Below are positions 30,204-56,200 of a DNA stretch of 59,125 bases, piece by piece. The stretch spans positions 1 to 59,125 of the forward strand of contig CAZCME010000026.1 in NCBI GenBank assembly GCA_964499705.1, read 5' to 3'. Position 1 is the first letter of the stretch, and every line of letters starts with the position of its first letter. The notes below the pieces were generated by a model. It did no database searches, was not told the origin of the DNA, and saw only the letters and a list, made by a program, of their open reading frames with translations. Source of the DNA: an uncultured bacterium (GTDB lineage: Bacteria > UBA8481). Position numbers and translations under genes: made by a program.

Positions 30204-30220
30204 CGACTTCCGGCGACGAA

Positions 30221-31246
30221 TCACTCTGTCGGAATCCGCCGGACCGACCGGCCCTCGAAAAGGACGGGCGGTAGACGAAGCTCCAGATCGAACCGCTCGC
30301 TCACCGTCGCTTCCGCCACGGCTTCCCCGATGGCCGCGAGCGGCTGCGCAACCGTCGTCAGCGCGGGATCGAGCTGACGGGCCAGGAGCGTGCCATCGAA
30401 GCCGGTGATGGAAACCTGCTCGGGAATCCGGATGCCGCTCTGGGTGAACACATCGCACAGCCCCGCCGCCATGTCGTCGTTGGCGGCGACGATGGCGTCG
30501 GGAAGTTCGCCGGTCTTCACCCAGTGATGCGCGGCATGGCGACCGCCCTCCCGAGTGAAATCGCCCGCGACGATATCCTTCCTGTCGACTTTGAGACCGC
30601 GCTGCTTCATCGTCGCGCAGAATGCCGCGGAGCGTTCCCGCGCGTCCGACAGATCGCGCGGTCCTTCGACGAAGCCGATCCTTCGATGTCCATGCTCCAC
30701 AAGATGGTCGACCACCATGCGGATACCCTCCGCGTTGTCCACGCCAATGGAGCCGAATCCCTTCGCGATCTTCTCGCTGCAGACGACGAGGCCGCGGACG
30801 CCCCGATCGGCGAGAAATCCGATCCGTGAGTCATGCGTCGGGGGGCCGAGCAGAATGACGCTCTTGAAGATGAGACTCTCGAAATTCGCCGCCAAAAGCT
30901 CCAATGTCGGATCCAGAGGCGACGAGGCCGACGTGCGAGGAATGTTGAAGAGCGCGATGGCGTGACCGCGCTGCTTCATCGCGTCCTCGATTGACCGGAT
31001 GAGCGCATGATAGATATTGTTGAGAAAGAGATCCTCCAGGCCCGTCACGACCGCCGCCATGGGAAAGCGCGTGCCGCGGGAGAGATGACGCGCCGAGAGG
31101 TTGACGTGAAACCCGCGCTGCCGGACGATTTTCTGCACCTTGCGCCGCGTCTTTTCACTGACATGGGGATGGCCGTTCAGGACGCGGGAGATGGTCATCT
31201 TGGAGACGCCGGCCTCCCGGGCGATCTGGCTGATGGATCCGTTCAA
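30221..31246 (-). CDS. LacI/GalR-family transcriptional repressor, copy B (341 aa)
   Basis: Same motifs as copy A, with an identical HTH. Start set at TTG 31246 by alignment with copy A (both 1026 bp, same SD). The ORF-track extension to 31312 runs into the promoter. Confidence 0.95.
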   Translation of the reverse strand: MNGSISQIAREAGVSKMTISRVLNGHPHVSEKTRRKVQKIVRQRGFHVNLSARHLSRGTRFPMAAVVTGLEDLFLNNIYHALIRSIEDAMKQRGHAIALFNIPRTSASSPLDPTLELLAANFESLIFKSVILLGPPTHDSRIGFLADRGVRGLVVCSEKIAKGFGSIGVDNAEGIRMVVDHLVEHGHRRIGFVEGPRDLSDARERSAAFCATMKQRGLKVDRKDIVAGDFTREGGRHAAHHWVKTGELPDAIVAANDDMAAGLCDVFTQSGIRIPEQVSITGFDGTLLARQLDPALTTVAQPLAAIGEAVAEATVSERFDLELRLPPVLFEGRSVRRIPTE

Positions 31247-31380: not shown

Positions 31381-31438
31381 TCATCATTATTTCGAGAGCG
31401 GGTAGCGAGCCGGAAGCGAGGCCGGGCGGACGGATCGG

Positions 31439-35276: not shown

Positions 35277-35304
35277 TTGCCAAAGCGTATTATCTACCTA
35301 TTAT
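35277..35304 (+). promoter_or_regulatory. Possible sigma70 promoter TTGCCA-N16-TATTAT for the lipoprotein and GH99-like genes
   Basis: Each hexamer is one base from consensus, with the same 16-nt spacing as the other two promoters, 46 nt upstream of the ATG. Confidence 0.45.
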
Positions 35305-35350
35305 CGGCTTGTCTAGGATGCGCCAGTTCAGGGGATGAGGAGGATGTTCC

Positions 35351-35926
35351 ATGAGGAAATCGTCGATTCTATTGACCACGGTACTTGTCTTGGCCGCCTG
35401 CGGAAAGACGGAAGCTCCGGCGCCCACGCCCGCTTTGCCGACCGCGGAGGTCGTCTCGGGGCAGCCCGCGCAGGAACCCGCGCCGGCTTCCGCGACAACA
35501 GTTTTCTGGCAGCAGAATTTTGATTCCGTCGAGGGGTGGTTCGACATGAATGACGACAAGTCATATGCGAGCCTACTGACGGGTGAATCCGGAGGGAAGG
35601 CGAAGCTGACGGAGGCGGGCCCGGATGAGTGGGGCAAGTCCGCAATTCTCATCAAGGATCTCGACATGTCCCGGGCCCCAATGCTCGAAGCGACCGTGGT
35701 TGCCATAGACGGCGGCAAGTGGGGCGTCGGCATTGTTCCCGATCCCTGGAACGACGCGGACTACAAGGAGCTTCTCCCGTGGCAGGAAGCGTCGGGCACC
35801 AAGACCGTGGATCTCGCCGCGGCCACGGGTTGGAGCGGCATGAAGAATGTGAACCTCGTCATCCTCGTCGCGAACGAAGGCAAGTCGGTCACGTTCGACG
35901 ACGTGAAGATTCAATACACGAAGTAA
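35351..35926 (+). CDS. Lipoprotein with Pro/Ala linker and probable carbohydrate-binding beta-sandwich domain (191 aa)
   Basis: Strong SD GAGGAGG, lipobox MRKSSILLTTVLVLAA|C, APAPTPALP linker, and a Trp-rich domain bounded by QQNFD and VTFDDVKI. Confidence 0.85.
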   Translation: MRKSSILLTTVLVLAACGKTEAPAPTPALPTAEVVSGQPAQEPAPASATTVFWQQNFDSVEGWFDMNDDKSYASLLTGESGGKAKLTEAGPDEWGKSAILIKDLDMSRAPMLEATVVAIDGGKWGVGIVPDPWNDADYKELLPWQEASGTKTVDLAAATGWSGMKNVNLVILVANEGKSVTFDDVKIQYTK

Positions 35927-35943
35927 AATAATCTGAGCGAGGC

Positions 35944-37834: not shown

Positions 37835-39274
37835 TTACATTCCTCCGGGATTCCGCACGGGCCGCTCCGTCGTAATGACGTCAACTCCGAGTCGCTCCAG
37901 CTCTTTGTTCACTTCCACGAGCATTTCATCCCACACCGGGAAGGGGCGATCGACGCTGCCGGCGAAATCGAAGTTGCGAATGACCTCGCTGCCGCTCATG
38001 AGGCGGGCCGCAATAATGACGGCCCTGCCTTCGATCCAGTAATCTCCTTCGATGCTGTAAAGCGCCTTGTCGCGAACAAGCGTGTGCAATCCCGCCTTGC
38101 GCCAGTCGTGGCGCAATATTTCCATGGTCGCCTTGCCGAACCAGTCCAGGTCCTCGGGGCCCGAGCGGAATATGAATTCCGCCGCATGAAGCCCTTTGCG
38201 CCCCTCGCCCGCCATGGGTCTCCCCGCCTTCGCGGGACGTTCCCCCCAGTCGATCGGGGGTCTGCCGCCGCCGAACTGATACGTCAGCGAGACGAGATTC
38301 TGATCGCCGACTTCTCCGAAAGGCACATACGCGTAATCGACCGCGATATCGTTCCAGTGAAACGCGGCGCCGGCGGTGAAGCCCGAACCGACATCGTTGG
38401 CGGAATTGAAGCCCGCCCTCACGGCGAATTGCTTCGGGAGAACCCAGACTTCTCCTCCCACCTTCGCCTCCACATCCTGATCCTTCACCCAGACGACATC
38501 GCTCGTGAGACCGTATCGGCCGCCGGGCGAACGATACCCAAGGCCAAGCCGGAGCGTGATGGGGAGTTCCTCCCTTTCCCGCACGAACTGGAGCCGGGAA
38601 CCGAGATTGGCGATGGAAAGACCGACGGTGAGTCCCTGCAGCGGTTGGTACCATTTGAGGCCGAGGTCGACCGCGCCCGCCGTGGCGCTGAAGCGATCGA
38701 GCTTTTCGTGCACGATCTTCACCGAGGCTCCGACGTCGAGAAACCGCGACAATGCCCGCGCATACGTGATCGAGCCCGCGATGTCCGATCCATCCGAACG
38801 ACCGAGAATCTGGTTTGCGACACCGGAGGCGATCGTCGTTCGATCGATCTCGCCCAGGTCCACGTACAAAGCATTCACTCCGAGGGCGGCATTCGTTCCG
38901 ATCGGCTGGACGTAGCCGATGTAGTTGTACTGGAGATCCTCGAAGAGCGTGTTGTGAAAGAACCCAACCTCGCTGCGGCCGTTTCTCGCGATGCCCGACG
39001 GATTGAAATACAGCCCGTACGCGTCGTCAGCCCACGCAACTCCCGCCTCCCCCATCGCCCCCTGCCGCGCGCCGACACCGAAGTTGAGGAATTCCGCGCC
39101 CGTGGAACCCGCGTTGGAAACGGCTTCCACCGGTCCGATCATCATCATGAGGCAGACGCAGAAAATGATGAGACAGAAGAGATGACCAGATTTGGAAGCG
39201 ATTGAAATCGCGGGGGGCGGGCAGACGTATTCAGGTCCCCTCCGGAGCTTCTTACTCCAGTCGCTCCTGGTCAC
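37835..39274 (-). CDS. PorV/PorQ-like outer-membrane beta-barrel with C-terminal extension, copy 2 (479 aa)
   Basis: NAGSTGAEFLNFGVGARQGAMGEA, YFNPSGIA, and DYAYVPFGEVGDQNLVSLTYQF; clear paralog of 14893..16239. GTG start after AAAGGGG; the exact start is uncertain. Confidence 0.88.
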   Translation of the reverse strand: MTRSDWSKKLRRGPEYVCPPPAISIASKSGHLFCLIIFCVCLMMMIGPVEAVSNAGSTGAEFLNFGVGARQGAMGEAGVAWADDAYGLYFNPSGIARNGRSEVGFFHNTLFEDLQYNYIGYVQPIGTNAALGVNALYVDLGEIDRTTIASGVANQILGRSDGSDIAGSITYARALSRFLDVGASVKIVHEKLDRFSATAGAVDLGLKWYQPLQGLTVGLSIANLGSRLQFVREREELPITLRLGLGYRSPGGRYGLTSDVVWVKDQDVEAKVGGEVWVLPKQFAVRAGFNSANDVGSGFTAGAAFHWNDIAVDYAYVPFGEVGDQNLVSLTYQFGGGRPPIDWGERPAKAGRPMAGEGRKGLHAAEFIFRSGPEDLDWFGKATMEILRHDWRKAGLHTLVRDKALYSIEGDYWIEGRAVIIAARLMSGSEVIRNFDFAGSVDRPFPVWDEMLVEVNKELERLGVDVITTERPVRNPGGM

Positions 39275-39314: not shown

Positions 39315-40976
39315 TCAACGAATCACCATGAACTTCTTCACGACGCGTTCGCCGTTCGGAGCCCGGATGACGGCGATGTAGGTGCCCGACGCCACCTCCC
39401 GGTTGTCGTCGGCATGGACGTCCCACTGGACGCTCCCGCCCGTGTTCGTCGCGTGAATCGTGGAGACGCGACGGCCGGTCACGGTGAAGATGTCGATATC
39501 GACGGTCGACGTCACGTTCCTGAAGATGATGCCCGTCGTGTTGTCGCCCTTGACGAACGGTTGGCCCGTTTGCGGATCGTTGTCGTATGGAATGAACGGA
39601 TTCGGATAGATGAGCACTCCCGAGAGGTTAGACGCGGGAGCGGCTCCGAAGACCGCGAAGTCCGTGAAGTGGCGCGTCCTGCAACGGATCACGTTCTTCA
39701 CGGGATCGATGACGCAGCCTTCCATCTTGATCCAGGTGGAGGAATTCCTGTCGTAGTAATAAATCGCGAGGTCTTTCTCGGCCACGGTGAGGCCCGCATC
39801 CGAGTAGGGCATCTCCATCGTCACCCAGTCATCGAATGTCGATTGTCCATCCTCTCGTTCAAAGCGGCGGTAATACCCGTCGCCCGGAATGACAAGACCG
39901 CTTCCCGGCAGGGGCGGCGGCGCATCGGGCGAGGATGTCCGGAAGATCGTGATCCGGATCCACATCGTGTCAGTCGAACCCATGGCTTCCGGCGGCATCG
40001 CGAACATCGAGCCTTCGACGACGAACGCCGTGTCGGTCGTCCACTTCACGTACCGGTGACGGCGGACGTGGATTCCCTCGATGGGATCGTTCCATTCGTT
40101 GATCCAGGAATCGGTCGCATCCTTCACGAGCCTGACATAGGTCGGGCTCGGATCCGTCTCGCCATTCGTATTGATGCCGACGGCGCGCACATAATAAGGC
40201 CCGTCCGCAACCAACTCGGTATTCCAGAGAATACCCCAGTAGGGAGGCGTCGTGTCCGGATTGGCATCGCTCCAGAGAGCCGTGGAGCAAGGCATCCAGG
40301 CTCCCCCCAGAGCGGAACGATACTCATAGAGAACGGAGGCGAAGGAGTCGCTGTAACCGACGGAGACCGTGACGGCGTTACCCGCGATCCGGACGCCTTC
40401 GTTCAATCCGGAGAGCCCCGGCGAGAGCGATACGATCGACGTGAAGGGTTCCGAGGTGTCGGTCACGACAAGCGTGCATGTGGTTGTCGACTGGTACCCG
40501 TTCCTGTCGAAGGCGATGATGGGCAGAACGAAAGTATCGGCGAAGACGGTGGAGTCGATCGTCAGCGACAGATTCCAGATCGAATCGCCGGATGTGGTAT
40601 CGGGCGCGATGCCGTCGTTTCTCAAGCTTGTGGAATCGGACCTGCCCATCAGGGAGAGATGGACGAGCACGGTATCGACGCTTGTCGTGTCCACCGCGGT
40701 AACGGAAATGACGACCGCGAAGTTTCCGTTGGAGACGGACGAAGGCGTGGCCCTTGCCGAAAGAATATCGGGGCCGGCCGTGTCGTACACCACGGTCTGC
40801 GTATCGGCGGCGTTGGAATAAGACGTCACCGTGCCGATGAACGGGGACGAATAATCGATCTGGGCCGTGTTGGTGATCCATGTGTTGGCCGGTGTTGCGG
40901 CCGATGTGGGAAGTATCAGCGCGCAGAGCAGCAGCAGCGTTAGCGCCGCCATGCCTGCGAAGGCAAACTTGTTCAT
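39315..40976 (-). CDS. Secreted anchor-like protein (553 aa): N-terminal DUF11-type donor hairpin, Ig-like anchor module, T9SS type A-like CTD
   Basis: Signal peptide MNKFAFAGMAALTLLLLCALILPTSAA, then TPANTWITNTAQIDY...SNAADTQTV. The rest aligns with the C-terminal ~490 aa of giant B and ends IYPNPF...WDVHADDNREVASGTYI...VVKKFMVIR. ATG 41081 is an alternative start. Confidence 0.88.
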   Translation of the reverse strand: MNKFAFAGMAALTLLLLCALILPTSAATPANTWITNTAQIDYSSPFIGTVTSYSNAADTQTVVYDTAGPDILSARATPSSVSNGNFAVVISVTAVDTTSVDTVLVHLSLMGRSDSTSLRNDGIAPDTTSGDSIWNLSLTIDSTVFADTFVLPIIAFDRNGYQSTTTCTLVVTDTSEPFTSIVSLSPGLSGLNEGVRIAGNAVTVSVGYSDSFASVLYEYRSALGGAWMPCSTALWSDANPDTTPPYWGILWNTELVADGPYYVRAVGINTNGETDPSPTYVRLVKDATDSWINEWNDPIEGIHVRRHRYVKWTTDTAFVVEGSMFAMPPEAMGSTDTMWIRITIFRTSSPDAPPPLPGSGLVIPGDGYYRRFEREDGQSTFDDWVTMEMPYSDAGLTVAEKDLAIYYYDRNSSTWIKMEGCVIDPVKNVIRCRTRHFTDFAVFGAAPASNLSGVLIYPNPFIPYDNDPQTGQPFVKGDNTTGIIFRNVTSTVDIDIFTVTGRRVSTIHATNTGGSVQWDVHADDNREVASGTYIAVIRAPNGERVVKKFMVIR

Positions 40977-41077
40977 CCGGCCATCCCGCCGATTTCGGGC
41001 GCACGTATCGAGCCGGGTCCGGGACGCACGTGTCGCGTCCGTCTTCAAAGCCGTGTTCCGCACGGCCGGCGATGCTC

Positions 41078-41497
41078 TCATCGAGCTCGCTCCGCGGGAG
41101 CCGCCGGGCTGATCAAGCCCGGCCGGCTGCCTCGCTGGAGCATGCACGTCGGGAAGGAGATCCCGGGTGCCATCGATTCGATTCGACGCGTTCCACACAA
41201 GTGTGTTCCTATCAACGGATGCCGGTTCGCGGTTGCGCGGTTCGCCGCGGGCGTTCTTGCCCGCGTTGCCGTCGCCGCCGCCGCCGGATCCGCCTTCCGC
41301 ACAAATGCGTACCGCACTAGTGCGTCCACCTTTCGGTGGTGGAACCGTCGTGGTCCGTCCGCGTGTTGTCGGATTCTCATGGAGAGCAGTTCTATCTGCC
41401 ATCCCGATCGATCCTTCCGTGCCAAAGCACGGCCACGCGGTATTTCATTCGCGCGTTCATGGATTCGCTCCACCCTTATCCGGGCGGGCGCGGTCAT
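41078..41497 (-). CDS. Possible hypothetical basic protein (139 aa)
   Basis: Fills the gap in the operon on the same strand, and its stop overlaps an in-frame ATG (41081) of the next gene. No recognisable motif and only a weak SD. Confidence 0.3.
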   Translation of the reverse strand: MTAPARIRVERIHERANEIPRGRALARKDRSGWQIELLSMRIRQHADGPRRFHHRKVDALVRYAFVRKADPAAAATATRARTPAANRATANRHPLIGTHLCGTRRIESMAPGISFPTCMLQRGSRPGLISPAAPAERAR

Positions 41498-41513
41498 CGG
41501 CCTAAGCGGCCTC

Positions 41514-41531
41514 GGAGACGCAAGCGTCTCC
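41514..41531 (-). terminator. GC-rich hairpin GGAGACGC-AA-GCGTCTCC downstream of the DUF11 gene (no U-tract; pause or stabilising stem)
   Basis: Perfect 8-bp inverted repeat 48 nt after the stop codon. Confidence 0.45.
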
Positions 41532-41579
41532 CCGCGTATCCGTCCCTCTACTGCCAGGTGCGGAGCTCATCCTCCGGGC

Positions 41580-42623
41580 CTATTGGATGAAGACCCTGAA
41601 ACGCACGAACTTGTTGTCTCCGGCCGCCACCTGGTTCTTGATCCATCGAACATGAGTGACCGTGCCGCCTGCGAATGTCGTCAGATTGGTCCAGTCGCCC
41701 GATGTGAACGAAGCGCTTGGATTGGCCAGCGTCGACACCTGGCAGATGAATCCTGCGTTGGTATCCGTCGCATGAAGCGTGGCGTCCGCGCCGAGCGTGA
41801 ACATCGAGTACGACGCCGTATCGAACGTGGTGTTCGCCGGAATCGTGTCCCGAATAATCACGGAATCGGCGGATGCCGTTCCAATGTTGTTATATGTCAA
41901 CCTGTAGGTGATTCGGGCGCCCGGTATCGGAGCGCTGGGATTGATGCCCATCGAAACGCTGTCGACGATCTTGTTGAGCGTCAGGCGCGCCGCGGCCAGA
42001 ACGGCGCCGGCAAATTCGTTCGAACCCGCTCCGCCTTCCGCGTACAGAATCCCGTTGTCACCCGTGTATTGTCCGGTCGAGTCGGCGGTCCCGACATTTC
42101 CCTGGTAGATTTTCAGTCGAAAATCCGCCCGGGCCTGATCCGGCGAATTGGCCGGCGTCGAGTGCGCCCAGATGGCGACGGAGCATTGCTTGGAGCCTCC
42201 TGCCGCCACGGTCGCGGCCGTGGTCCTCGTGTCCGCAAGCGCCCATGTGGAATCGTTGTCGACCCAGAGCTGGAACGTCCAGCCCACGGCGCCGTTGTTC
42301 AACGTGAAGCTGTCCACTTCGATCTGGAACGTATCGGCCCTGTTTCCGGTGTTATAGAAGGTGTAGGTGAAGATCTTCGTCTCACCGATGGAAAGACCCT
42401 GCGTGTCGATATTGCTGATGGTATCGCCCGCGATCGCCCTGACCGTCGTGTCTATGAACAGCGTTGTCGTTTCCTGGGCGTTGCCATTGACGTTGTACGT
42501 CACCTGCGCCCGATTGCTGAGTGTCGTGCCCGAAACCGTGCCGTTGGCGGAGGCGCGGGTCGGAAAGGCGATGAGCGCCAGCAACACCGCGCCCATGCTC
42601 CATGTCAGTCTGTTGAGATTCAC
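41580..42623 (-). CDS. Secreted DUF11 (conserved repeat domain) protein, candidate major pilin (347 aa)
   Basis: GTG start after AAGGAG and a signal peptide ending ASA. N-terminus GTVSGTTLSNRAQVTY. C-terminal LTLNK...PIPGARITYRLTYNNIGTASADSVIIRDTIPANTTF...VRWIK...VRFRVFIQ*. Confidence 0.88.
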   Translation of the reverse strand: MNLNRLTWSMGAVLLALIAFPTRASANGTVSGTTLSNRAQVTYNVNGNAQETTTLFIDTTVRAIAGDTISNIDTQGLSIGETKIFTYTFYNTGNRADTFQIEVDSFTLNNGAVGWTFQLWVDNDSTWALADTRTTAATVAAGGSKQCSVAIWAHSTPANSPDQARADFRLKIYQGNVGTADSTGQYTGDNGILYAEGGAGSNEFAGAVLAAARLTLNKIVDSVSMGINPSAPIPGARITYRLTYNNIGTASADSVIIRDTIPANTTFDTASYSMFTLGADATLHATDTNAGFICQVSTLANPSASFTSGDWTNLTTFAGGTVTHVRWIKNQVAAGDNKFVRFRVFIQ

Positions 42624-42712
42624 AATATTCTCCTTATCGAATCGATGTTTATCCGTTATCACGGGCTCCGGCCCCTCGCGCGGAATCCGTTGCTTCTATG
42701 GTTTGATCGTCA

Positions 42713-44251
42713 TCACCTCCCGATACCGATTTGCGTCGACGCCACTTTCGTGTCTACGGCCGTCCAAACTTCATGAGCCTCCAGCTCGGCGAGCTGAACA
42801 AACCGCCACGCCGGAGTTTTCGTGAAGTACGGGCTCCCTTTCGGGATGAAGATCATCAGATATCGGATGGGCATGGACGCATCGACCGCGATCGCGACGC
42901 GCTTCAACGGATCTCCTCGCGTCGATCTTTCATCGGCGCCGGCGCCCGCATCGATCCCGAATCCCGGATAGCTCCAGTTCACCGTGTCCCGCGCCACCAT
43001 CACGTAATAGCTCTTCGGATACGCATTGCCCCGCCAGACGGTCTCCACGGATGTCAGCAGTTTTTCGGAACCGAGGTCCACGAGCACCCACTGGTCCGTG
43101 TCGGCGGGATCCGAGGAGGTTGCCATGCCCGTGAAGTAGTCGTTTCTGCCATCCGTGATTCTCTCCAGCGCGGGCCGCTTGCTCTCAACATATTGCTCGT
43201 CCGTCAGAAGCGCGAAGGAGCCCCAGGCGCGCGCGCCGACGGCGATGTTGTTCGCGAATGTGGTGAACCGGAACCACGGGGTCGCCGTTCCGTGACCGGC
43301 GGAATCTTCGGTGACGATCTGGTATTCGTACGCCGTCCGCGGCAGAAGGCCGCCGAAATCGGCGACGAAGGAAAGCGTATTTTCCTCCACGCGTGCCGCG
43401 GTCTTCATGAGCCTGTCGCCGCCCGCCTCACGCCACTCCATCCAGGCTCGGCAGGGCACATTCGCGGAGAAGCGGAAGAGAGCGGAGTCGCGGCCGAGGA
43501 TATAGCGGGGATTCCAGGTGAAGGGATAAGGCGAGCCCTTCGTGCGGAATTTCAGGGGCTTTGAATCGCTCGATCCCAGGTCCTCGGCGGTGAGAATCCA
43601 GACGTGATAGTCGGAGCCCGGCATCAGGTTTTCCAGCCGCGCCTCGTGATCCATCACCATCTCATAGGACGGCGCCGACTGGGATTTCATCCGGTCTGCA
43701 TTCAGGCCGTAAAGGATCGACGTCTTGACCGGCATCGTCGTCTTCCACCGGATCACCGCGCTCTTCTCCTCGATCTCCGCCGTCTCGATCGCGTAAACTT
43801 CGGCCGTTGACGCATCGGCAGGAATCAGGCGGAGCTCGCTCACTTGGAAATCCGGATCGCTGAATTCGATGGTGACCATGGCGGCGCGGGCGACCGAGGG
43901 AGCAAATTCAAGCGAGGTTCGCTTTCCATCCGGTGTCATCGATGGTGCCACCGTCGGCTGGCTCCATGAGACCGCATCCTTCGACAGGCTCACCGTCACC
44001 CGCGCGGGCGCGCCCTGGCATTCGAGCTCGACGCCCTTCAAGACGGCTTCGTTCTGAAGGAGAAGGAAGAGCTGAAGCGGGGAGGAATCTGGACGCGCGG
44101 CGGTGGAAAAATCGCCGTCGTGAATACTCGCCAGCTCGCGGCCGTTTCCGGACACGGAGAAGGGCACAGGGAGCACAACAGCGGCGTTCGCAAAGGCAAC
44201 GTCGGCGAAGGGCAACAGGCAGAGAGCGCAGATCCAGCTCATTCTCTTCAT
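42713..44251 (-). CDS. Secreted discoidin-FN3-FN3-discoidin protein (512 aa)
   Basis: Start MKRMSWICALCLLPFADVAFA at 44251 has an ATGA overlap with the giant C stop. Motifs SAVIRWKT...HEARLENLMPGSDYH, GLLPRTAYEYQI and ITDG...DQWVLVDLG...PKSY. Confidence 0.85.
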   Translation of the reverse strand: MKRMSWICALCLLPFADVAFANAAVVLPVPFSVSGNGRELASIHDGDFSTAARPDSSPLQLFLLLQNEAVLKGVELECQGAPARVTVSLSKDAVSWSQPTVAPSMTPDGKRTSLEFAPSVARAAMVTIEFSDPDFQVSELRLIPADASTAEVYAIETAEIEEKSAVIRWKTTMPVKTSILYGLNADRMKSQSAPSYEMVMDHEARLENLMPGSDYHVWILTAEDLGSSDSKPLKFRTKGSPYPFTWNPRYILGRDSALFRFSANVPCRAWMEWREAGGDRLMKTAARVEENTLSFVADFGGLLPRTAYEYQIVTEDSAGHGTATPWFRFTTFANNIAVGARAWGSFALLTDEQYVESKRPALERITDGRNDYFTGMATSSDPADTDQWVLVDLGSEKLLTSVETVWRGNAYPKSYYVMVARDTVNWSYPGFGIDAGAGADERSTRGDPLKRVAIAVDASMPIRYLMIFIPKGSPYFTKTPAWRFVQLAELEAHEVWTAVDTKVASTQIGIGR

Positions 44252-47200
44252 TGCACGATCACCCGGTACCGGATGACGGCCTGCGGTTCGCCGGCTGTCA
44301 CGAGAAGCTTTCTCCAGCGAACATACCGGACCGATGACGGTACGCCCGGCACGCCGGACGTGTAATCGGCGGAATAGAAACTCTGGTCGGGCGCCGCAAT
44401 GGTCGCATACTGGAACTCCCAGCCGGCGATGTTCGTCACCGTGTCGCGGAACGCGGTCGTCGTGGCGACGGTATCGACGACGATGACCGAATCCGCGGGC
44501 GACCAGCCCGCATTCTGGAATGTGAGCGAATACTGGAGCGTCGAACCGGGGTAAGGGCCGAAGGATGTCGAATCGAGAGCTTTCGTGATCGTGAAGGTCG
44601 TGGCGGCAACACCTCCGGCCGAATCGGACCTGTTGCCGTTGGAGTCGACCGCGTAAACGAAGAAGTAGTACGTCTCCCCAGGCAATACCGACGTGTCGAT
44701 CCGCGAGGTGTCGATGATTATACCGTTGAAGAGGAGCGTCGCTGCAGCGAGAGAATCGTTTGAGCCGTGACGGTAGACGCGATACCCGACGAGATCCGTC
44801 TCCGTGTTGTTGTTCCACGAAATCCGCACGCCGGTTTCACCGAGGATCGCCGCGACCGCGGTGAATCCGGTCGGCTTCGCGGGTTTCAGAGCATCCGCGA
44901 CGAAATATGACGAGTCTCCGAATGCCGTCCAGTTCCCGGATGGATCGTAAGCGGCGACGCGCCACCAGACCCGTCCGCTCAGGTTGAACGGCGCCTGCGT
45001 CTCGTTCGTGTTTGTCAGATGCGCGCGCCAGATCGTCATGCGGAAGTCCGAGTCCGTCGCCAGTTCGAGATAATACTTAACCGTCCCATTGATGTCGGTC
45101 GTCGCGGCCCAGCGGATGTTCGGCCGCGTCCCCGTCTCCGCGCCGTACGCGGGCTGCTGCGTCGCAGGCGCCGCCGCCGGATCCGTAACGTCTCCCTCCA
45201 CCCACTGGATGTCATCGATCAGAAACGCGCCGGAACAGGTCGAAGCGGCGCCGGCCACCGCGAAGAGGAAACGGTTGAATCTCGTCTTGTCGAATCCGAG
45301 CGCGGTGTAATCGGCGAGCGGTATCCGGACACGGCGCCAGTCGGGACCGAGGTTCGGAATATAACTGTTCAGGGAAAGCGCCCACTCCGTACCGTTGCCC
45401 GCGTGCCGCACCTTCACGTCCATATTGCCCCAGGAGTCGGGGCTGGCGCTCGTGCCGGTCTCAAGGCGCACCATCATCTCAAGCGCGGCCGCGCTCGAAA
45501 CATTCAACGCCGGATAGTCGAAGATCATTCCCTGCCATCGATTCGACGAATTGTTGATGCTGTAATCCATCCGCAGGGATCCCGCGCCCGCGTAATGAAC
45601 CGAGGTTTCCTGCCGGAAGGGCGGATTCGCCGCTTCGGAAAACGGGGTCGCGGTCGTTCCATATGCGGTGGTCGCGATCGCGGTGTCGTTGAAGACTTCC
45701 AGAACGCATGTGTCGATCTTCTTCATGAAATTGATATGATCGATATCGATCACCGGACTGGTCGTCCCGCCGTATACGGCCGGATCGTCGTACAGGAACG
45801 CCATGTTCGAATCTCCGAAGATAAGATCGCACTGCGTCCAGGCCGCGAGCGGGATTACGACTTCCTGCCAGCTCGTCGTCGCTCCGCCGGAAGAGAGGAA
45901 CTTCCATACATCCACCTTCTGATTGCCGCCGGGTCTCGGTAGCTCCAACCGAAGAATGTCGCCCGGGGTACCGTCGCCCGACCGCAGGCCGAACGAGATC
46001 GCGCGGTAGAAGTCGGTGGAATCCGCCAAATCGGCGCCGCCGCCGCCCGGTACAGTGATGTAGCCTCCGAAGGATCCGCCGGGCACGGAACCGGTGATGC
46101 GGAGGAAGTTGCCGCCGTCCTTCGGATAGAGCGGCGCGTCGGTGCGGTTTTCGAGCGTGATGGCCGCGCCGCCGTTTTCGAACTTCGACGTGTCGCCGTT
46201 CCATAGATTCTTAGCCCGGACCGTGTTGAAGTCATCCAACACGCGCATCTCCACTTCCATCGTGTCCGATCCCGGTGTCGTCGCCCAGTTGCTGACATGG
46301 TCCTTCGCGGACACCTTGTAGCGGTTGAAACCGACGCGGCCGATCGCCGAGTCGAACGTGCTGCCGAGCGCGGAGTCGTTGATCGCGTTGTCCGCCACGT
46401 TCGTCGATGCGTTCACAAGCTCGGTGCCGGCGCCGGAATCATTGTCGGCAACGGCCCACGTCAGCCATATTTCACGGTCGTTATCGGTATCCGTCGGCGC
46501 GTCGGCGGTCGTGTCGCGCCGCGAGTTGACGTTCGTGAGAATCGGCCCATAGCGGTCCTCGATGAGCTTCACATACACGGTGTCGTACCGGGTTCCGGTC
46601 GTGTCGTACAATGCGAGTTGCCACGTCGTCTCGCCCCAGAGAATCCGGAAATTCGAAACTTCGAAGTTGAAGACGAACGGTGTCGTGATATCCGTCTGCG
46701 GGCCGGATTCGAAGATGGATGAAGCGACCGCCCTCGCGGCTCCGCCGGAGGCCACGACGGTGCATGTCACGATCACGGTCTCCGCGCTGTTCGTCCAGAC
46801 CGTGTCCGCGGGACTCGCCGTGCCTGTGTCGATCGGTCCGGTGCCCGCGTAGAAATACGACGCGGCCGCGCCCGACATCGTGATCGTCAGAACGTCCGGC
46901 GTCACTACCGGAGTTTCCATGGCGATCGAATCGGAATAGAAGGAGGAATTTTCGTAAGGAGCCGTCGTGTCGACGGCGGCGACGCGGTAGTGATAGACCG
47001 TGTCGTTCTGGAGCCCCGTGTCCGTGAATGCGAGCGTCGCCGCGCCGACCGCTCCACGGAGAACCCACAACGTCGTATCGCGATTCTGCGAACGATAGAC
47101 GCGGTACCCGCCGAGCGATACGGCCGCTTCATTCTCCTCGGACGTCGTCACGGGCTTCCATGTGACCGTGATCTGCGTGCTGTCATACGATCGCGCGGCC

Positions 47201-50200
47201 ACCGTGTCAGGAGCCCGGGGCGCGACCGTATCCGCCGAGAGCGACGTGTCAGCCGCTCCGAGTCGCCACGCCGCGTATACGACCGTCAACCTTTGCGCTC
47301 CGCCGATCCGCTGCAGGATCTTAGCGGAATCCGTCGTGCTCCAGTACTGCCGCGTCGCCGTCACGTCGGCGGTATCCGTGAAGAGCCCGTTCGTATCGAT
47401 CGCGCCCGCCGACGGAACGATCGTATTCTTCTCCAGCACGTTTGCTTTCGAGGACGCGTCGAGATAGAAGCCCCAGCCGGCATTCGAGTCAGCTTCGTTC
47501 TGGACGAAGCGGTTGAACGACGATCCCAGCGCCTTGAAACCCGCGGCGCGATTCTGCCGCGCGATGCCGCCGCGGACGACGTTGTTGTCCGATCCGGTCG
47601 CGCCGTTGTTCTGGAAGAGGAATCCGTCGTTCGTGCTGCTGTCCGCCGAACAGGCGATGACGAAATTCACGTTCGAACCGTCGTAAAAGAGGAAGCCCAC
47701 GTCGCTGTTGCCGCGCGCCGCGCACGAGGTGATCGTGCAGCCCGTGGTCTGATCGAGCATGAAACCGTCGTTGGCGTTCACCTCGGACGTGCAGGAATCC
47801 AGGCGGGTGCCCGTCGCCTGTTTCAAGTAGAAACCCTGGAGCGCGCTCGACCGGACGCGAAGGTTCGTGAAGGTGTTGTTCGTCGCGCCAAGGTTTCCCT
47901 CCACGTAGACGCCCACATCACCGGCGCTCGTCACCGTCAGATCGAGGAAGGTGTTGTTCGGGCTCCTGACGTTCACTCCGCGCCAGACAGGCGACGTGAT
48001 CCGGATCGTCTCGATCGTGTTCGCTCCGCTGTCGGCGATCCAGAGTCCGGCGCTCGCCCCCCCCGTCGTCGTGCAATAGCCGAGGCGATTTCCCGAGGAT
48101 GTTTCCGTCAGCGAAATTCCGCTCGCGAAAACGCTCTGAGCCGCCGTGCAATTGGTGAGCGTGTTCTGATGCGCGGCGACGAGAAGGAAATTATCCTGGC
48201 CGGACCGGTTCGCGGAGCACCACCGGAACGTGTTCGTGTCGGCGCTGTTATGGATGCTGAAGCCGCGATTACCGCAGGAATCGACGAAGTTCGTGTCGTA
48301 GATTCCATACCGCGTGTTGTCGACGTCGAAGCCGTCGTTGGAAGAATAGCGGACGAGATTGGAGCGGAACGTATTGGAGTCGGCGTTCGCCCGGACGAGG
48401 AAACCGTCCGTTCCCGCCGAATCGACCTGGTTCGACGTGAAGACATTCCAGCTTGTCCCCGCGTCGGAAATATAAAAGCCCTGGTCCGCCGTTCCATTGC
48501 CCGTCGTATTCGAGGTGAAGACGTTGCTCTTCGATGCGCCCGTCACCGCGTACGCCGCCGTCGCGTTCGATTCCGAGCGGTTCGACGTGAACGTGTTCGT
48601 GTCGGAACCGATGACAGAGAACCCTTCCGCGCGATTCGAATAGGAGACGCAGGAAAGAAACGTGTTGAGATTCGCCGCGCTGATCACGTATCCGAGGCTC
48701 GTGTTCGTCTCCGATGTCGCGTTCGAAACCGTGGCGTATCGCGCGCCGCCGAAGTAGAAACCGGCGTAGCCGCTGCGAGTCGCATGGCATCGGTCCATCG
48801 TCCATGAATCCGATCCGCCCTCCAGAATGAACCCGATGTTGCCCGTTCTCTGGGCGCGCACGCGGAGAATCGACCCCGTGTCGGCCGTCGTCACATAGAC
48901 GCCGTTGTATCCGTCGCGGACCTGGAAGTCGGAGAGATAAACGGCCGACGTCGTCGAGCAGTGGAGCGACCGGAAGGAAGCGACGGAAGAATCGAAAAAG
49001 TTGATGACGGTGAGGGAGGAGTCGACGCCCTGGATCCAGAGGGGCGAGACCGTGATCCGGACCGTGTCGGGAGGAGCGAACGCTCCGGCGTCGATGAGGA
49101 TCGTGTCGCCCGCGGAGAGATCCGCCACCACGGCCTCGATCGTCCGCTTCGGCGCGGCGGGCGTCAGTCCCGAGTTCGCGTCGTTGCCGACCGCTCCGGT
49201 GTACGAATCGCTGGCATTGTATGTTCCGTCGTTGACGTACCATTTGTTCGGCCCGGAGATCGTGACTGCGGCGGCGGACGGGACCGAGTCCGAATAATAC
49301 GCTTCGTTCAGGAACGGCGACGCGTTGTCGAACGCCGTGACGCGGTAGAAATATACGTCGTTCTCCACGAGGCTCGAGTCCGTGTACCGCGTGTCCGACG
49401 CGGATACCGTGCCGCGGAGTATCCAGTAGGTCGTATCCGAGCTCTTCGCTTGATAGATGCGGTATCCGGTCACATTCACCGCAAACGGATCTCCCTCGGC
49501 GTCGGCCGTCACCGGCGACCATGAGACGCGGATCTGCCCGGCGGAGACGGCGGTTACCGAATCCGGAGCGCGCGGCGCGACCGTGTCCGATCCGAAAGTC
49601 GTATCGACCTCGCCCAATCGGTAGGGCGGATACACGAACGTCGCCGCCTGAGGACCTTTGAAGCGCGTGGAGAAGACCGCGGTGTCGACGGAGCCCCACC
49701 AGTTTCGGAGCGCGTTCTGGCCCGCAAGATCGGTCCAGACCGCCGTGTCTCCAGCGGCGCCTGTCGGGAAATTATTCTTCGCGATCGTGTTGCCCGCGGA
49801 ACCGGAGTTGACGTACAGACACGCTTCGATACTCGATTCCATCTGGTTCCCCACCAGGACGTTGTTGTCCGAGTTGATCAGCTTGAAACCGCTCTTGCGG
49901 TGATTCCTCGCGAGATTTCCCGAGAGATAATTGTTGTCGGAACCGGAGCCCCCGTTGTCGATGAGGAGGATTCCGTCCGTCGTGTTCGTCTCGGCCCTGT
50001 TGCGCGACAGGATATTCCAGGTCGCCCCATAAAGGAGAATGCCTACGTCCGCGTTGCCGCTCGCGACATTGGCGGTCACGGTGCAGCCGACGGTCGAGAG
50101 CATGTGGATGCCGTCGTCGCCGTTCCCGGTCACAGTGTTGGACTCGAAGATCTCGCCCGTGCCCGAGACGGCCTGGATGCCGATGTTGGCGCCGTTGGAA

Positions 50201-53200
50201 ACCGTGTTGGAGACGAATCGATTCGTGTCGGACCGGACGGCGCCGTCGAAGTGCGCGCCGACGTCCGTGGCTCCAGTGATGACGTTCCCCATAAACGTGT
50301 TTCCCGGCGTCCGGACCGCGAGCCCCCGCCATGCGGGCGAGATGATGCGGTTGTAGTTGAACGTGCCGAAACCCAGGTCATCCAGCCAGAACGACGGTCC
50401 GCCTTCGCTCGTCGATGTGCATCCGTACACCGTGTTACGGATAGATGTGTTGACGAAGCTGAAGGCCGCGCTGTTGGAGACGGCCGAAGTGCAGGAGAAG
50501 ACGATGTTCGAGTCGGCATCCTCGAACTTGTAGTTGTCGGCACCCGTCGATCCGTGCGATCCGCACCAACGGAAGACGTTCGTATCGGAATTGGCTCGCA
50601 CGTAATAGCCGTATCCGGTCGGACGATAGACATAGTTGGTGTCCAGGATGCAGCGGCTGGCGTCGTCGAGGTCGTAACCGTCTCCGGCGGGAGTATCGAC
50701 GCGGTTCTGACGGAGTATTGTGCCTTCGGATTTCACGTAGAATCCGTCGGCATTCGGATTGCGAATGACGCTTCCCGTGATGATGTTGCCCTCGCCAGCG
50801 TCGATCCAGAATCCCTGGCCGGTATTCCGGGTCGATCGGTTCGAGGTGAAGACGTTGGACGAGGCGCCCGTGATGATTGAATACGCCGCCCAGAGATTCG
50901 TATCCGCGTCGTTATCCTCTGCGAGATTCTGATTGGCCTGGCTGAACCAGAATCCTTCCTGCGTGTTCGAGTCGGCACGGTTGGACCGGACAGTGTTCGT
51001 ATCGGAGAAATATCCCACAGCAATGCCCTTGATGTTGAAGAAAGAATAGTTTCCGACAAGCGTTGCGAACTTTGACGTGGCGACCATGATGCCCCAACCG
51101 TTTCCGGCGCGGTTGCCGTCCACGTGGCAGTTCTCCACGCGCCACGAATCCGAAGCGACCTCCAGGAGTATCCCGACCTCCGCGTTCGAAGCGCGCACCC
51201 GCTGCACGACACCCGTGTCGCCCGCGACGGAATGAATTCCGCGATAACCGTCGCGAACCCAGAGATCCTGGATCCGGACGAAGCTGCACGGCGTGTAGAT
51301 CGAGTTGAAGCTCGCCTGTGTGGAGTCGTTGAAATTGATGATGGTCTTCGCCGAGTCGACACCCTGGACCAAGACGATGTCCGTGTCGATTCGCACCGTA
51401 TCGGTCGGCGAGAATGTTCCGGCGTCGATATTGACCGTATCGCCCGAAGTCAGGAACGGGAAAACGGCCGCAAGCGTCAGCTTCGGCAGCGCGGGCGTCA
51501 ACCCGGAGTTGGCGTCATTGCCGACGGCGCCCGTGTACGAATCGCTCCCGTCATACGCGGCATCGTTGATATACCAGGCGTTGGGCACAAGGGTGTCGAC
51601 GGTCGCAGCGGCGATCGCGCTGCATTTCGTGTCCGCGTAAAAGGATTGGTTGTCGTACGGCGAGCTCGTGTCGAACGCGGTTACTTTATAGAAGTAGCTC
51701 TCGCCCGAATTGAGACCCGAGTCAACGAAGGAGAGCGTGCCCGCACCCAACGTCGCGCGCAGATACCAGAGCGACGTGTCGGGATTCTTCGCGGTCCAGA
51801 GCTTGTATCCGGCGAGTTGTACCGCGAAAGGATCGCCCTCTTCGTCGACGGTGACAGGGTGCCACGTAATCGTGATCTGCGTGGACGCAACGGCCGCGCA
51901 GGTATCGGGTGAGCGCGGCGCGACGGTGTCGGCGCCGGCGGTCGTGTCGATCAAGCCCAGCCGATACGGAATGTAGATCGCGCTGCCCGCCGCGCCGCCC
52001 GTGATCTTCGACCGGACGACCGCCGAGTCGGTCGTGTTCCAGTAATTCCTCGATATATCCATTCCGGCAGGCTCGACATTGACGCTGTCGGCACCGGTCG
52101 CGTTCGGGATGATGTTGTTCTTGGCGAATATGCCTCCGGTCGCGGCGGCTTCCCAGTAGACGGAATTCATGGTGTTCGATTCGAAACGGTTCGCCACGAC
52201 GACGTTGCCGGTCGAACCGCCCTGGAGATAAATGCCGCGCTGCTTGTTCCAGCGGAACGTGTTCCGCTCCAGACGGTTCCCGGTCGAGATGTCGAATCGG
52301 ATGCCGTCCTGGGCGCTCGACTCAATGAGGTTGTCCTGGAAGACCTGGTTGTTGGCGGCCGTCACGAGATGCACGCCGTTCTGCTGAGTGCGGCGGAACG
52401 TATTGCCGATGATCGAATCGTTCGTGGAACCGTTGATCTGGAGATTGTGCTGAAGCTGGGAATCGACGAAGTTCCAGCGGACGTTGGAATAAGACGAGCC
52501 GTTCGCGATCTGGATGCCGATCTGGCCGCAATTGTCGATCGTGTTCGAATCGATACGGTTGAATTTCGAATTATCGGACGCGATTCCCATGAACGTGCTG
52601 TATCCGACGTGATTCGAGAGAATCGTGTTCGTTTCGGCGCTCGAATTCAGCAGGATCCCGTGCGCTCCGGCTTTGTTGACATGGCTGTTCTGGACGAGAT
52701 TCCATCGCCCGGTCACGACGTTGATGCCGTGATTGACGGGCGTGTCGATCCAGCACCGGTCGACCGTGTTGTAGTCGGAGCCGCCGTTCACGAGAATGCC
52801 GATGTTGGCCGCGTTCGTCACGCGGACTCGTTCCAAGGAACAGAAGTCGGAGAAGGAAAGACTCACGCCGATATTCGGCGCCTTTACCCAGAGATCGCGG
52901 ATCGTGACCGTATCGACGGAGATCGCGATATTGGCGGACGCCGTGAAGCTGATGACGGAAAGTGCCGAGTCGACGCCGATCAGGAAGACGCCGGTGTCGT
53001 CGATGTCAAGCTGCGCGGCGCGCGTGCATTCGCCGGCGTCGAAGTAGACCGTGTCGCCATTCGAGAGAAGCGGTATGACGGCGCCGAGCGACCGTTTCGG
53101 CTTGATCGGCAGGAGCCCGTGGTTGGCGTCGTCGCCGATGGCGCCGGTGAAGGAGTCGCTCGCGTTGTACGCCGAATCGTTCACGTACCACTTGTTCGCG

Positions 53201-56200
53201 ACCGCGGCGGTCTCGATCGTGACGAGCGTTGTGTCGGTTCCCCACGTCGTGGTCTCGTAGACGATCCGCAGCGAGGCCACGCCGAGATCGGTGCCGAACT
53301 TGATCGTTGTCGAGCAGACGCCGTTCGTGAAAGCCACCGTCGAAATATTGATGGTGGGTAATCCCGTTGCCGTGATCGCCACGCCTGCCGCCGTAAAGTT
53401 GGTGACCGTGTCGCCGCGCGCGTCGACGGCAAGAATGCGAAGCGTGCGGGATTCTCCGAACTCCACCGTGTCGCCCGGACCGGTAAACCGGAACCGCATG
53501 TTCGGGTTGGAGTCCTGATTAGCCGCGGGTCCCGGCGTCCATCCCGGACTCGGCTTGATGTTGTTCCGGAAAACACCTGCTCCGTCCCAGGCCCGGATGT
53601 AGGACGAATCCTCCAGCGTCCCGGGGAAGGCCACGTCATCGACGGTGTCGCCTCCGTTGTTCATGAGAATCATCCGGCCGCCGCCGTTATTCAGGTCTCC
53701 CATGAATCCAGACGTGCACGTGAAGCTATTGATCGCGGCGCTGTTGGAGTCGAAGATGTATGCGCCTCCGTTGTTCGCGGTCCTGTGATAGAGCACCATG
53801 TAGCCGCGCGGAGGAATCGTGTCAGAAAGCAGCATCTTCGTCGCGCCGGTGACTCCTAGACGCCACGACGAGAGCGGCGCGGGAGAATCGGCGCGGTTGA
53901 AAAGCTCGACCCACTCGTCCTCGTTTTCCTCGGGAGAAACAGGCGCGCCGTCCCAGTCGACCGTGCCCACATTGACCATGATCTCGTTGATCAGAACCTG
54001 CGGGACGGGGCCAACCGTGAACTCGGCCCGACCCGTCTCCCCTGTCGTCGCTTCCGTGGCGGTCAGCGTGTCGAGCCCATTTGCCGCGCCCGAGAGCGTC
54101 AAGGTCGCGGTGATCTGTCCCGAGTCGGACGCGACAAACACGGCGGACGTCGGAGAAATCGATCCGCCTGCCACCGTGAAGTTCACGGTTCCCGTATAAT
54201 CTTCCTTGCGAGCGCCGTTGATCGTACGGGCGATGATCGTGACGCCGAATTGGTAGTCGTTGGAAACCTTGGATGGAGCCGTGACATCGAAGTGATGGAG
54301 CGGTCCTGGCGTCACGGCGATAGCGCTTGACGTCAGGTTCCACGAAACCGCGGTGATTGTATCCACGGAACTTGTCCCCAGCCACCGATGCCCGTCCTTC
54401 GTTCCCGTCTCCGTCGAAAGAGCAACGAAGATTTCCTGGTTGTAGATCCGCGACCCATTCGCGGTCTCCCACAAGGTCAGGACGATTCCCGTGTCATCGG
54501 TATTCGACCTCAGCTTCACCGTCGTCACGCCGCGTTGCGACCCGTTTCCGCCGCCGGTCGCGGAGACAGTCACGATGAGCCGCTCACCAAGACCCACCGT
54601 GTCCGTCGAACCGGTGCTCGATCGGAGCGTCACGGTCACGCCGGTCAGGTTGGTATCGATCAATCCATTGTCGAACCCTTCCGTGTATGTGTTCGTTTCC
54701 GTTGCTGGAGCCGCGGCCCAGTCCAGGTTCGAGAATGTCGTATCGCGGCCGTTGTAGCCGCGGAAGATCGAGCGTCCCTGCAGCGCGGTGGCATTCGTGG
54801 CGTTGTGATCATAATTCTCGTTGTCATTCCAGATCTGCGCACCCACCGCGTCGGAATCGTCGCTGGTGTTGGTCGTCGCCGTGTTCTTCCACATGAGAAA
54901 CGAGACGATCGTGGAGGAATCAAGCGTCGTGGAGGCGTAGAGACCCATCGAACCCGCCTGGCCGAGCCTGTTTCCGAATGACGCGAAGGGGAAGACGTGC
55001 GCCGCGTTGTCCGTGTCGGTGAAAACGGTCTCGTGCGCGCCGCTCTCGCCGTAATGCACGACCAGGTGCTTGCCGGACGGGATCGATACAGTCGGGAGGA
55101 ACGTGTCACCGGTGCTGTAGTCCGTAATAAACCATCCGGCGGTCGAAACAGTCCCGGTCGATCGATTGTAGATTTCCACCCATTCGTCGCGGTCCGCGCT
55201 CGAGGGATTGACGACGTCGACAGGCAGTATTTCGTTGATGATGAGCCTATTGTCGAGAAGCGGATAGACTACGACCGTGCCGGTGAAACCCGACGAATCT
55301 GCCGTGATCGTATCCGCGCCGACAGCTCCGCCACCGGAGATCGTGACCGAACATGTCGTGTCGCCGTTCCACGCGGATAAGAACGGTATCGTCGTCGGGG
55401 AAATCGTTCCCTTGGCGACGGACAGCGTCACCGTGTCCCGGAACGAGGTGACCGTGTTTCCATCGAGGTCCCTTGCGATGACGCGGAGATTAAACGCCGT
55501 GCCTCGCTTGACGGTGCGCGATTGAACGAGGAGCACAGGGTCGGTTTCATACACATCGAAATGATCCACGACGCGCTGCGCGCGAAATTCGATCTTCGTC
55601 GAGGTTTCGGAATTGAGCCCCGGGTCGTAAGAGACGATCCGGACCCAATGCGATTCCTCCGAGAGGTTGCCGATCGTCAACCATGTGTTGTACGTGTACG
55701 TGTCAACGACGATGTTATTGAAGAGCGAATCGACGCGCGTGACCTGGACGCGGTACCGCACCGGCGGCGTCGAGTCCGTTGACGCAGTCCACGTGCAGCC
55801 GACGGCATTGAAGACCCATGCGCCCGCGGCAGGCGCGGTGATGACGGCGGCGGTCGGAGGAACGGCGGTCTGGACGGTCAAGGCAAGAATTCCGTTAATG
55901 GGGCCTGGCGCCGTCGTCTCCGTGCCATACGTCGTATCCGCAGTCACTGTGCAGGCGCCTGTGAACCCGGTGATCGTCACGGATTCCATTACCATCCCAT
56001 TGCGCGTATCCGTTGTGGAATAGGTGTTGAACGTGTCGGCCGTCGTCGTGGGATTGATCGTACCCTGCGAAATCCTGAGGCGCGCAAATCCCGTCATGCT
56101 CGCCGCCGCCGTGTCGGATACTTTTCTCCCGAACGTGTCCTGCGCCGTTATGTGCAGCGAGAATGGCACTCCTGTTTCGACATACGTTCCCGACAGGCAC

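Follow-up and report, generated by a model that had tools for sequence, protein, structure and literature searches.

A CLIPPER domain divided between separate genes of a surface-protein cassette in diderm bacteria, and its possible joining by an intermolecular isopeptide bond

Introduction

Can the three residues that build an isopeptide bond inside a single immunoglobulin (Ig)-like domain be distributed over separate genes, and would the two pieces of the domain then come together again in trans? This question is raised by a contig of 59,125 nt from an uncultured bacterium (GTDB lineage UBA8481; contig CAZCME010000026.1 of assembly GCA_964499705.1), which in its whole length we call the window. 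It carries a cassette of surface-protein genes, transcribed in the order A, B, C, D, E, with all of their features on the minus strand. A sequence-only reading of the window had pointed to a Lys-Asp-Asn triad shared between the products of this cassette, with Lys and Asp in the acceptor half of a CnaA/CnaB-type domain and Asn in a donor hairpin, and had proposed that an intermolecular bond between them would give a covalent, sortase-independent polymer.

We report that the domain in question is a CLIPPER (DUF11) domain and that its two halves lie on different genes of the cassette. The split and its trans-acting design are well supported by the comparison of sequences, and the covalent bond and the topology are plausible. 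The reading that we favour, with a slight lean beyond an even chance, is a head-to-tail complementation in trans (A<-C<-D) that is locked by an autocatalytic intermolecular Lys-Asn bond. The pieces that carry the halves, each with its own signal peptide, are the following.

44251..59124, minus strand: gene A, which encodes a giant surface protein no shorter than 4958 aa, with its 5' end cut by the contig end and its stop codon at 44248-44250
44251..44610, minus strand: strands 1-7 of CLIPPER, forming the acceptor half at the C-terminal end of A, which stops where strand 8 would be expected
41583..42623, minus strand: gene C, link protein of 347 aa, with signal peptide, donor hairpin, middle Ig-like domain and acceptor half-CLIPPER
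42441..42545, minus strand: donor hairpin of C, residues 27-61, CLIPPER strands 8-9, directly after the ASA signal-peptidase site
41991..42434, minus strand: middle Ig-like domain of C, residues 64-211
41583..41990, minus strand: acceptor half-CLIPPER of C, residues 212-347; C ends after strand 7
39318..40976, minus strand: gene D, anchor protein of 553 aa, with signal peptide, donor hairpin, anchor module and a C-terminal tail of the type IX secretion system (T9SS) type; no acceptor
40779..40895, minus strand: donor hairpin of D, about residues 28-66

A CLIPPER domain cut in a loop

All six triad codons lie on the minus strand and, on translation, encode the residues and contexts that had been claimed for them. 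The lysines are read from 41970-41972 (AAG; Lys218 of C, in RLTLNKIVDSV) and 44581-44583 (AAA; in TFTITKALDST of A), the aspartates from 41847-41849 (GAC; Asp259 of C, in SVIIRDTIPAN) and 44473-44475 (GAT; in SVIVVDTVATT of A), and the asparagines from 42513-42515 (AAT; Asn37 of C, in GTTLSNRAQVT) and 40869-40871 (AAC; Asn36 of D, in NTWITNTAQID). Around these residues the hydrophobic positions alternate (L-x-L-x-K-x-V, I-x-I-x-D-x-I and L-x-N-x-A-x-V-x-Y), as they do where a strand is buried. The triad codons and their placement are more than chance, and the observation is confirmed as real and non-random.

DUF11 (PF01345) was renamed CLIPPER in a 2025 survey, which gives it a CnaA-like fold, describes the isopeptide bond of such folds as joining the first and the penultimate strand, and presents a crystal structure, 9IFR, in which an isopeptide bond links Lys715 and Asn806 of the same molecule close to Asp748 (PMC12617251). 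The acceptor of C matches DUF11 in Pfam at 30.3 bits (cut-off 24.6; positions 4-72 of the 114 of the profile) and TIGR01451 at 41.2 bits (cut-off 24). That of A also exceeds the cut-off of TIGR01451, at 28.2 bits against 24, and stands below that of Pfam DUF11, at 21.5 bits against 24.6 (profile positions 4-54 of 114). By these family-model matches and the bond reported for 9IFR in the survey, the CnaA/CnaB-type isopeptide domain of the sequence-only reading is placed in the CnaA-like CLIPPER/DUF11 family (PMC12617251).

We built a hidden Markov model (HMM) of the intact domain, 145 positions long, from 250 diverse domains of 99 giant proteins. These were taken out of 781 domains collected from the giant multi-repeat proteins of a profile search, which had been chosen solely by a match to the acceptor part and extended to a fixed length. 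The conserved residues of the model, K17, D51 and N107, are spaced by 34 and 90 positions, as compared with 33 and 91 in 9IFR. The acceptors of A, C and their homologues map to positions 4-96, and the nine-strand fold is incomplete in each of these chains. The acceptor of C in the window reaches 64.0 bits at positions 7-84, with a second piece that runs to position 94, and that of A reaches 32.9 bits at positions 8-65; in both alignments Lys falls on K17 and Asp on D51. The donor hairpins of C, D and their relatives, which lie in the first ~40 mature residues, were compared with the same model as 40 segments, two of them duplicates and the whole set biased by having been chosen with a motif expression. 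All 40 map to positions 95-140, and 36 exceed the best of 1600 shuffles (8.8 bits). The hairpin of C scores 13.8 bits at positions 97-133 and that of D 14.8 bits at positions 97-131, and the starts of the HMM matches place the donor Asn on N107.

Because the acceptors (4-96) and the donors (95-140) tile the domain without a gap and overlap by at most a position or two, the CLIPPER fold is cut in the loop between beta7 and beta8. The claim that acceptor and donor halves belong to separate subunits is borne out in this form, with the two halves encoded on different genes.

Conservation of the triad and of the arrangement

The sequence-only reading had expected K, D and N to be conserved among homologues, and so they are. 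The C family comprised 13 homologues at 25-63% identity and, after a profile search, 27 proteins at 21-63% identity. The alignment of these 27 proteins has just 11 invariant columns, which include Asn37, Lys218, Asp259 and the signal-peptidase residue Ala26, and all 27 proteins stop in the identical final column. Lys and Asp are likewise invariant in 9 of 9 acceptors compared (four of type A and five of type C), and Asn in 6 of 6 D-type donors. Since K-D-N is also carried by 209 of 250 intact CLIPPER domains, the triad is the norm of the family, and the unusual feature of this cassette is its distribution over separate genes.

The genome to which the window belongs is 96% complete. In a full-sensitivity scan of its 39,897 ORF (open reading frame) translations we found two acceptors (A and C), two donors (C and D) and no intact CLIPPER, the next best matches standing at E-values of 0.81 and 5.1; as the donor HMM had been trained on C and D among others, it is just the absence of further matches that is informative in the donor scan. 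Among the genomes of the GTDB phylum set, four of five have the C family and this arrangement. The order A-B-C-D-PorV-like recurs in genomes G001 and G002, and C sits between A and D in every cassette examined. The complete homologues of A, in G002 and G003, begin with a signal peptide and have no donor hairpin.

The window holds a further giant gene, H, which by its sequence we take to be the single-chain counterpart of the A/C/D set.

14893..30458, minus strand: giant H, 4740 aa, single-chain, with its own T9SS-type tail; followed by gene I, which is PorV/PorQ-like

Residues 55-553 of D are 38% identical to the last 492 residues of H (E 9e-101), and gene I after H shares 50% identity with E. 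CLIPPER and hairpin are both missing from H and from 6 of 6 longer single-chain homologues of D, searched among proteins of 969-2765 aa. As these single-chain relatives are without both elements, the halves are confined to cases in which the adhesin and the anchor are made as distinct chains, and there they stand exactly at the free ends. A single-chain "Rosetta stone", in which an intact CLIPPER would stand before a D-type anchor module, was sought among the same six longer homologues, and none was found.

Several other proteins were noted beside these. The ORF J (window 2-13312, minus strand), a third giant, has 4437 aa, runs off the contig end and has an N-terminal region in common with H. 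The giant P0053 (3865 aa) has a hairpin match near the start of its listed sequence and an intact CLIPPER later; among its first ~440 residues, the part that was inspected, we identified no acceptor half. P0135 (1335 aa) has at its C-terminal end a module like C, in which the acceptor is truncated.

A related cassette in the Gammaproteobacteria

With a 10-row subfamily alignment of C as the query, we found the C subfamily at 413 loci in the Gammaproteobacteria, namely in Steroidobacteraceae, Woeseiaceae and unclassified bins. A related four-gene cassette is complete in 44 of 44 fully flanked loci (L020-L098; for example, L022:7920-16673). It encodes a donor+acceptor protein, a small acceptor-only protein of ~165 aa, a second donor+acceptor protein and a donor-only protein of ~2000 aa. 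The last of these, scanned in one example (L022), contains CarboxypepD_reg, an intact DUF11, SdrD_B, an OmpA peptidoglycan-binding domain and a barrel-like C-terminal region. The donor Asn is kept in 36 of 41, 40 of 40 and 35 of 36 detected hairpins, and the acceptor Lys and Asp in 31 of 43 (nine more have a gap at Lys) and in 34 of 40.

How the halves would be joined

We infer that the hairpins insert in trans, that the order of the chain is A-C-D, that the bond forms and that the whole is exported as one unit. The acceptor, as the C-terminal end of A or C, would be a CLIPPER fold without its last two strands, holding a buried Lys and the catalytic Asp, and the donor, made of the ~35 residues with which mature C or D begins, would be the missing beta8-beta9 hairpin, holding the Asn. 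After Sec export and cleavage of the signal peptides, the free N-terminal hairpin of the downstream protein would enter the open fold of the upstream protein, and the hydrophobic core would be rebuilt by this insertion. Lys and Asn would then react autocatalytically, with the help of Asp and with the loss of ammonia, as inside an intact CLIPPER. Because the acceptors are C-terminal and the donors N-terminal, the product would be a linear head-to-tail chain, A<-C<-D. Such a chain would mimic the single-chain adhesin H, and through it the tail-less A would obtain D's T9SS-type tail and could reach the PorV-like protein E, the gene of which lies directly downstream of D.

37838..39148, minus strand: gene E, outer-membrane protein of the PorV/PorQ family (NF033709, 171.2 bits against a cut-off of 90, E 4e-50)

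A T9SS tail was looked for in the last 399 residues of A and was not found there. The tail of D scores 20.9 bits with TIGR04183 (cut-off 23) and 15.1 bits with Pfam Por_Secre_tail (cut-off 27), and it matches the C-terminus of PorZ at 1e-8; NCBI lists one D homologue under the name T9SS C-terminal target domain protein. Elsewhere in the genome there are many tail-bearing giants, and an ORF of 2168 aa (G000:C5:205477-209034) matches SprA at E 2.4e-28, below the cut-off. Eleven ORFs of the genome, including some of 5746, 9487 and 9673 aa, match the tail end of the PorU model.

The sortase independence that had been claimed agrees with the absence of an LPxTG motif from A, B, C and D. The accompanying claim of a covalent polymer fares less well: that the assembly is a polymer is not established, as two acceptors and two donors fit a defined A-C-D chain equally.

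Structure models and alternative readings

A monomer model of C was made with AlphaFold2 (AF2) from the 27-row alignment and reached a mean predicted local distance difference test score (pLDDT) of 81.6 and a predicted template modelling score (pTM) of 0.63. The hairpin in this model has a pLDDT of 81-91 and strands at residues 34-37, 40-45, 48-53 and 57-60. When the model was compared by VIA-align, a middle domain (64-211) and a C-terminal domain (211-347) were delimited, with the hairpin outside both ranges. A Foldseek search with the whole C model returned generic multi-Ig matches alone (TM-score at most 0.34) and was set aside. A model of the N-terminal 141 residues of D by themselves was poor (mean pLDDT 41); in the part that holds the hairpin, residues 1-48, the pLDDT is 30-41 per 10-residue block, and residues 1-47 are without secondary structure. 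The complex of the C acceptor (208-347) with the D N-terminus, predicted by ESMFold2, was graded as "weak support", with a score of 0.34 against 0.01 for the best of three controls; at least 95% of contacts recur between runs, and the pLDDT of the partner is at least 55. The mark for this score is reached by 58 of 80 solved complexes and by 2 of 110 mismatched pairs.

Several of our observations speak against the favoured reading. The score of the C acceptor with D falls in the weak band, up to 0.60, which holds 7 of the same 80 solved complexes and both of the passing mismatches, and since the partners are halves of one domain, the pass may reflect a likeness to solved intact folds. The AF2 monomer probably has the hairpin of C docked in cis, on the acceptor of the same chain. 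The small acceptor-only protein of the Gammaproteobacteria varies at the positions in question, with K or Q for Lys and D, N or S for Asp (L021, L022, L025, L028 and L035), some ORF picks for its gene, which lies between the two C-like genes, being in the wrong frame; in view of this variation, not every joint need be covalent, and perhaps not in every species. Donors outnumber acceptors in G002 and G003, because the extra C-D pair of these genomes comes without an extra acceptor-only gene. Part of the retention of the triad could simply be inherited, as 209 of 250 intact domains have it. Sequence searches of the PDB with the C acceptor, the acceptor profile A2 and the intact-array protein P0016 did not retrieve 9IFR or any other CLIPPER, so that the mapping of residues onto 9IFR goes by spacing and family assignment and not by direct alignment; the best matches in these searches were antibody VH domains, which we rejected as chance-level. 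No PorU-type sortase was found above the cut-off in the genome, which bears on the fate of the tail of D. The intermolecular bond and the adjacency of the triad residues are predictions.

Such a docking in cis would lead to an alternative in which C is circularly permuted and self-locked: C would complement itself, its bond would be intramolecular, and the sole intermolecular joint would be the hairpin of D in the acceptor of A. The hairpin pLDDT of 81-91 and the pTM of 0.63 are in its favour when set beside the D hairpin, which without an acceptor is modelled at a pLDDT of about 30, as are the linkers of just 2-3 residues between hairpin and middle domain and between middle domain and acceptor, which are compatible with side-by-side packing. 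Two donors and two acceptors balance under this arrangement, too, and CnaA-like domains are described in the survey as tolerating inserted domains (PMC12617251). The contrast with the D hairpin is weak, however, since the D model is poor overall. In addition, AF2 tends to complete an open fold in cis in monomer models wherever this can be done. Where G002 and G003 have a C-D pair without A, the conserved hairpin of D would be left partnerless, and C, if locked on itself, would be physically unconnected with A and D, between which it nevertheless stands in every cassette examined. We regard a self-complementing C as unlikely.

Rather less probable, in our view, is that complementation takes place in trans but stays non-covalent, as in chaperone-usher or type V pili, with the triad kept for packing or by descent. 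The variable Lys and Asp positions of the gammaproteobacterial acceptor-only protein would fit this, donor-strand fibres without covalent links are common (PMC11821415), and the survey mentions some DUF11 domains without bond residues (PMC12617251). Against it, just 11 columns are invariant at 21-63% identity, and Lys, Asp and Asn are three of them; proteins with one side of the triad only keep the residues of that side as well, and to bury a Lys and an Asp that have nothing to react with would presumably be costly. The idea that there is no complementation at all strikes us as very improbable. On this view the truncated domains would be Ig folds that are stable with seven strands, and the N-terminal motif would serve as a signal for sorting or recognition; or else the genes would be the debris of a fission. 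It is true that the isolated hairpins (49 and 51 aa) have no DUF11 match in Pfam and that the assembled state is without a solved structure; but the halves tile the intact domain (acceptors to 96, donors from 95), each piece has its own signal peptide, the arrangement is kept in four of five genomes of the phylum set and at 413 gammaproteobacterial loci, and the halves are absent from the single-chain relatives.

Relation to known systems

Intact CLIPPER/DUF11 domains belong to the same HMM family as the halves, with a Lys on the first strand, an Asp ~34 positions later and an Asn ~90 later on the penultimate strand, and both occur in giant surface proteins. According to the survey, the intact domain has its nine strands and its triad in one chain and its bond is intramolecular, whereas here strands 1-7 and strands 8-9 are on different genes (PMC12617251). 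The word "split" is absent from that paper (PMC12617251), and in the literature consulted, which includes a 2026 review but not the supplements, no split CLIPPER or intermolecular CLIPPER bond is described. Two papers that came up in the literature search were rejected: the tafi paper is unrelated and its term had matched through "DUF1102" alone, and the F-ENA preprint mentions DUF11 solely as stalk domains.

Divided isopeptide domains are familiar from protein engineering. The isopeptag/pilin-C, SpyTag/SpyCatcher and SnoopTag/SnoopCatcher pairs are man-made splits of Gram-positive CnaB-type domains, in which a strand with one reactive residue is added in trans to a truncated Ig-like domain that holds the other residue and the catalytic acid, and the two are ligated spontaneously. 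The present case differs from the engineered pairs in being a natural split, of a CnaA-like domain, with a two-strand hairpin as the donor and in diderm bacteria.

Among natural systems, the closest precedent is BsaA of Clostridium perfringens, a member of the TasA family, for which a preprint describes donor-strand "exchange and lock", with an Asn35-Lys74 bond that needs Glu56 and is supported by mutants (bioRxiv 10.1101/2024.11.04.621531). There, too, an N-terminal segment enters the sheet of the next subunit and an acid-dependent inter-subunit Asn-Lys bond follows. BsaA is unlike the present proteins in its TasA-like fold, its homopolymer, its Gram-positive host, its association with SipW and type IV pilus genes and its N-E-K triad, the catalytic residue here being Asp (bioRxiv 10.1101/2024.11.04.621531). 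In Pfam and NCBIfam, C, D and the last 399 residues of A gave DUF11-type matches only and none to TasA-like families. The archaeal thread protein Saci_0406 resembles our case in combining donor-strand complementation with a proposed inter-subunit isopeptide bond; it is unlike it in that the bond would run from the N-terminal amine of Asp24 to Asn57 of subunit n+2, without a Lys-Asp-Asn triad and in an unrelated fold (PMC9715654).

The logic of the cassette is that of chaperone-usher pili (FimH/FimA/PapH), with an acceptor-only tip, shaft subunits that have both elements and a terminator with a usable donor only, and with an incomplete Ig fold that is completed by the N-terminus of the next subunit. 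Those pili donate a single strand with the help of a chaperone and an usher, and their subunits are not bonded covalently, in contrast to the two strands and the isopeptide triad found here; a scan of B, E and further neighbouring genes, which did not extend to the whole genome, detected neither a periplasmic (PapD-like) chaperone nor an usher family. Sortase-assembled Gram-positive pili share the covalent inter-subunit isopeptide links and the Ig-like pilins with CnaA- or CnaB-type domains. Their links are made by sortase at LPxTG, the motif that A, B, C and D are without.

If the bond forms, the cassette would provide a natural counterpart of engineered tag/catcher ligation, derived from a CnaA-like domain, and might be a source of new orthogonal hairpin/acceptor pairs. 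It would also represent a new principle of surface assembly in diderms, namely the covalent joining of separately exported proteins without sortase and without chaperone or usher; it would explain how a Sec-exported adhesin of ~5000 aa is anchored without a sorting tail of its own, and CLIPPER, so far a staple within one molecule, would become a connector between molecules as well. The 413 loci of Steroidobacteraceae/Woeseiaceae type suggest that such a principle may be common in environmental bacteria. On a wider and more tentative view, which we hold to be possible with somewhat less than even confidence, split CLIPPER domains would be an unrecognised and widespread way in which diderms build fibres and giant adhesins by autocatalytic head-to-tail ligation. 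There would be an acceptor-only tip, donor+acceptor links and a donor-only outer-membrane anchor, a tail-less adhesin would be exported via the T9SS tail of its anchor, and the halves would make a natural tag/catcher pair.

Other features of the cassette and its surroundings

Gene A contains right-handed beta-helix/NosD regions, lamin-tail domains, FN3 and Ig domains (Pfam: Beta_helix 2.1e-84, NosD 3.5e-66, LTD 1.9e-24). The middle domain of C was found best matched, in the VIA-align list for the AF2 model, by 6kjk_A, the N-terminal domain of the T9SS protein PorA (Z 11.4, root-mean-square deviation 3.1, 117 residues aligned), followed by many generic Ig and MG domains at Z 9-10.6; among the matches listed, 45 of 50 rows start at model residue 62-67. 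Between A and C lies the remaining gene of the cassette.

42716..44251, minus strand: gene B, secreted protein with FN3 and F5/8 type C (discoidin-like) domains (Pfam: F5_F8_type_C 3.4e-11, fn3 1.7e-6)

B has no CLIPPER half, and a B-like gene is found at the same place in G001 and G002. Its start codon overlaps the stop codon of A (ATGA, 44248-44251), and this overlap suggests translational coupling of A and B.

The gap between C and D (window 40977-41579, minus strand) is ~600 nt long and has a CGAATCGAA-type motif at 41177-41185. A motif of this type, followed by a short GC-rich inverted repeat, is common to the upstream regions of the six D-type genes examined; the 9-mer is not enriched in the window (three matches, 3.2 expected), and Rfam gave no match anywhere in it. 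The stretch 30224-37806 holds three neighbouring genes, which encode a LacI-family regulator, a protein of 1199 aa with three F5/8-type-C domains and, on the plus strand, a GH99/GH71-like glycosidase.

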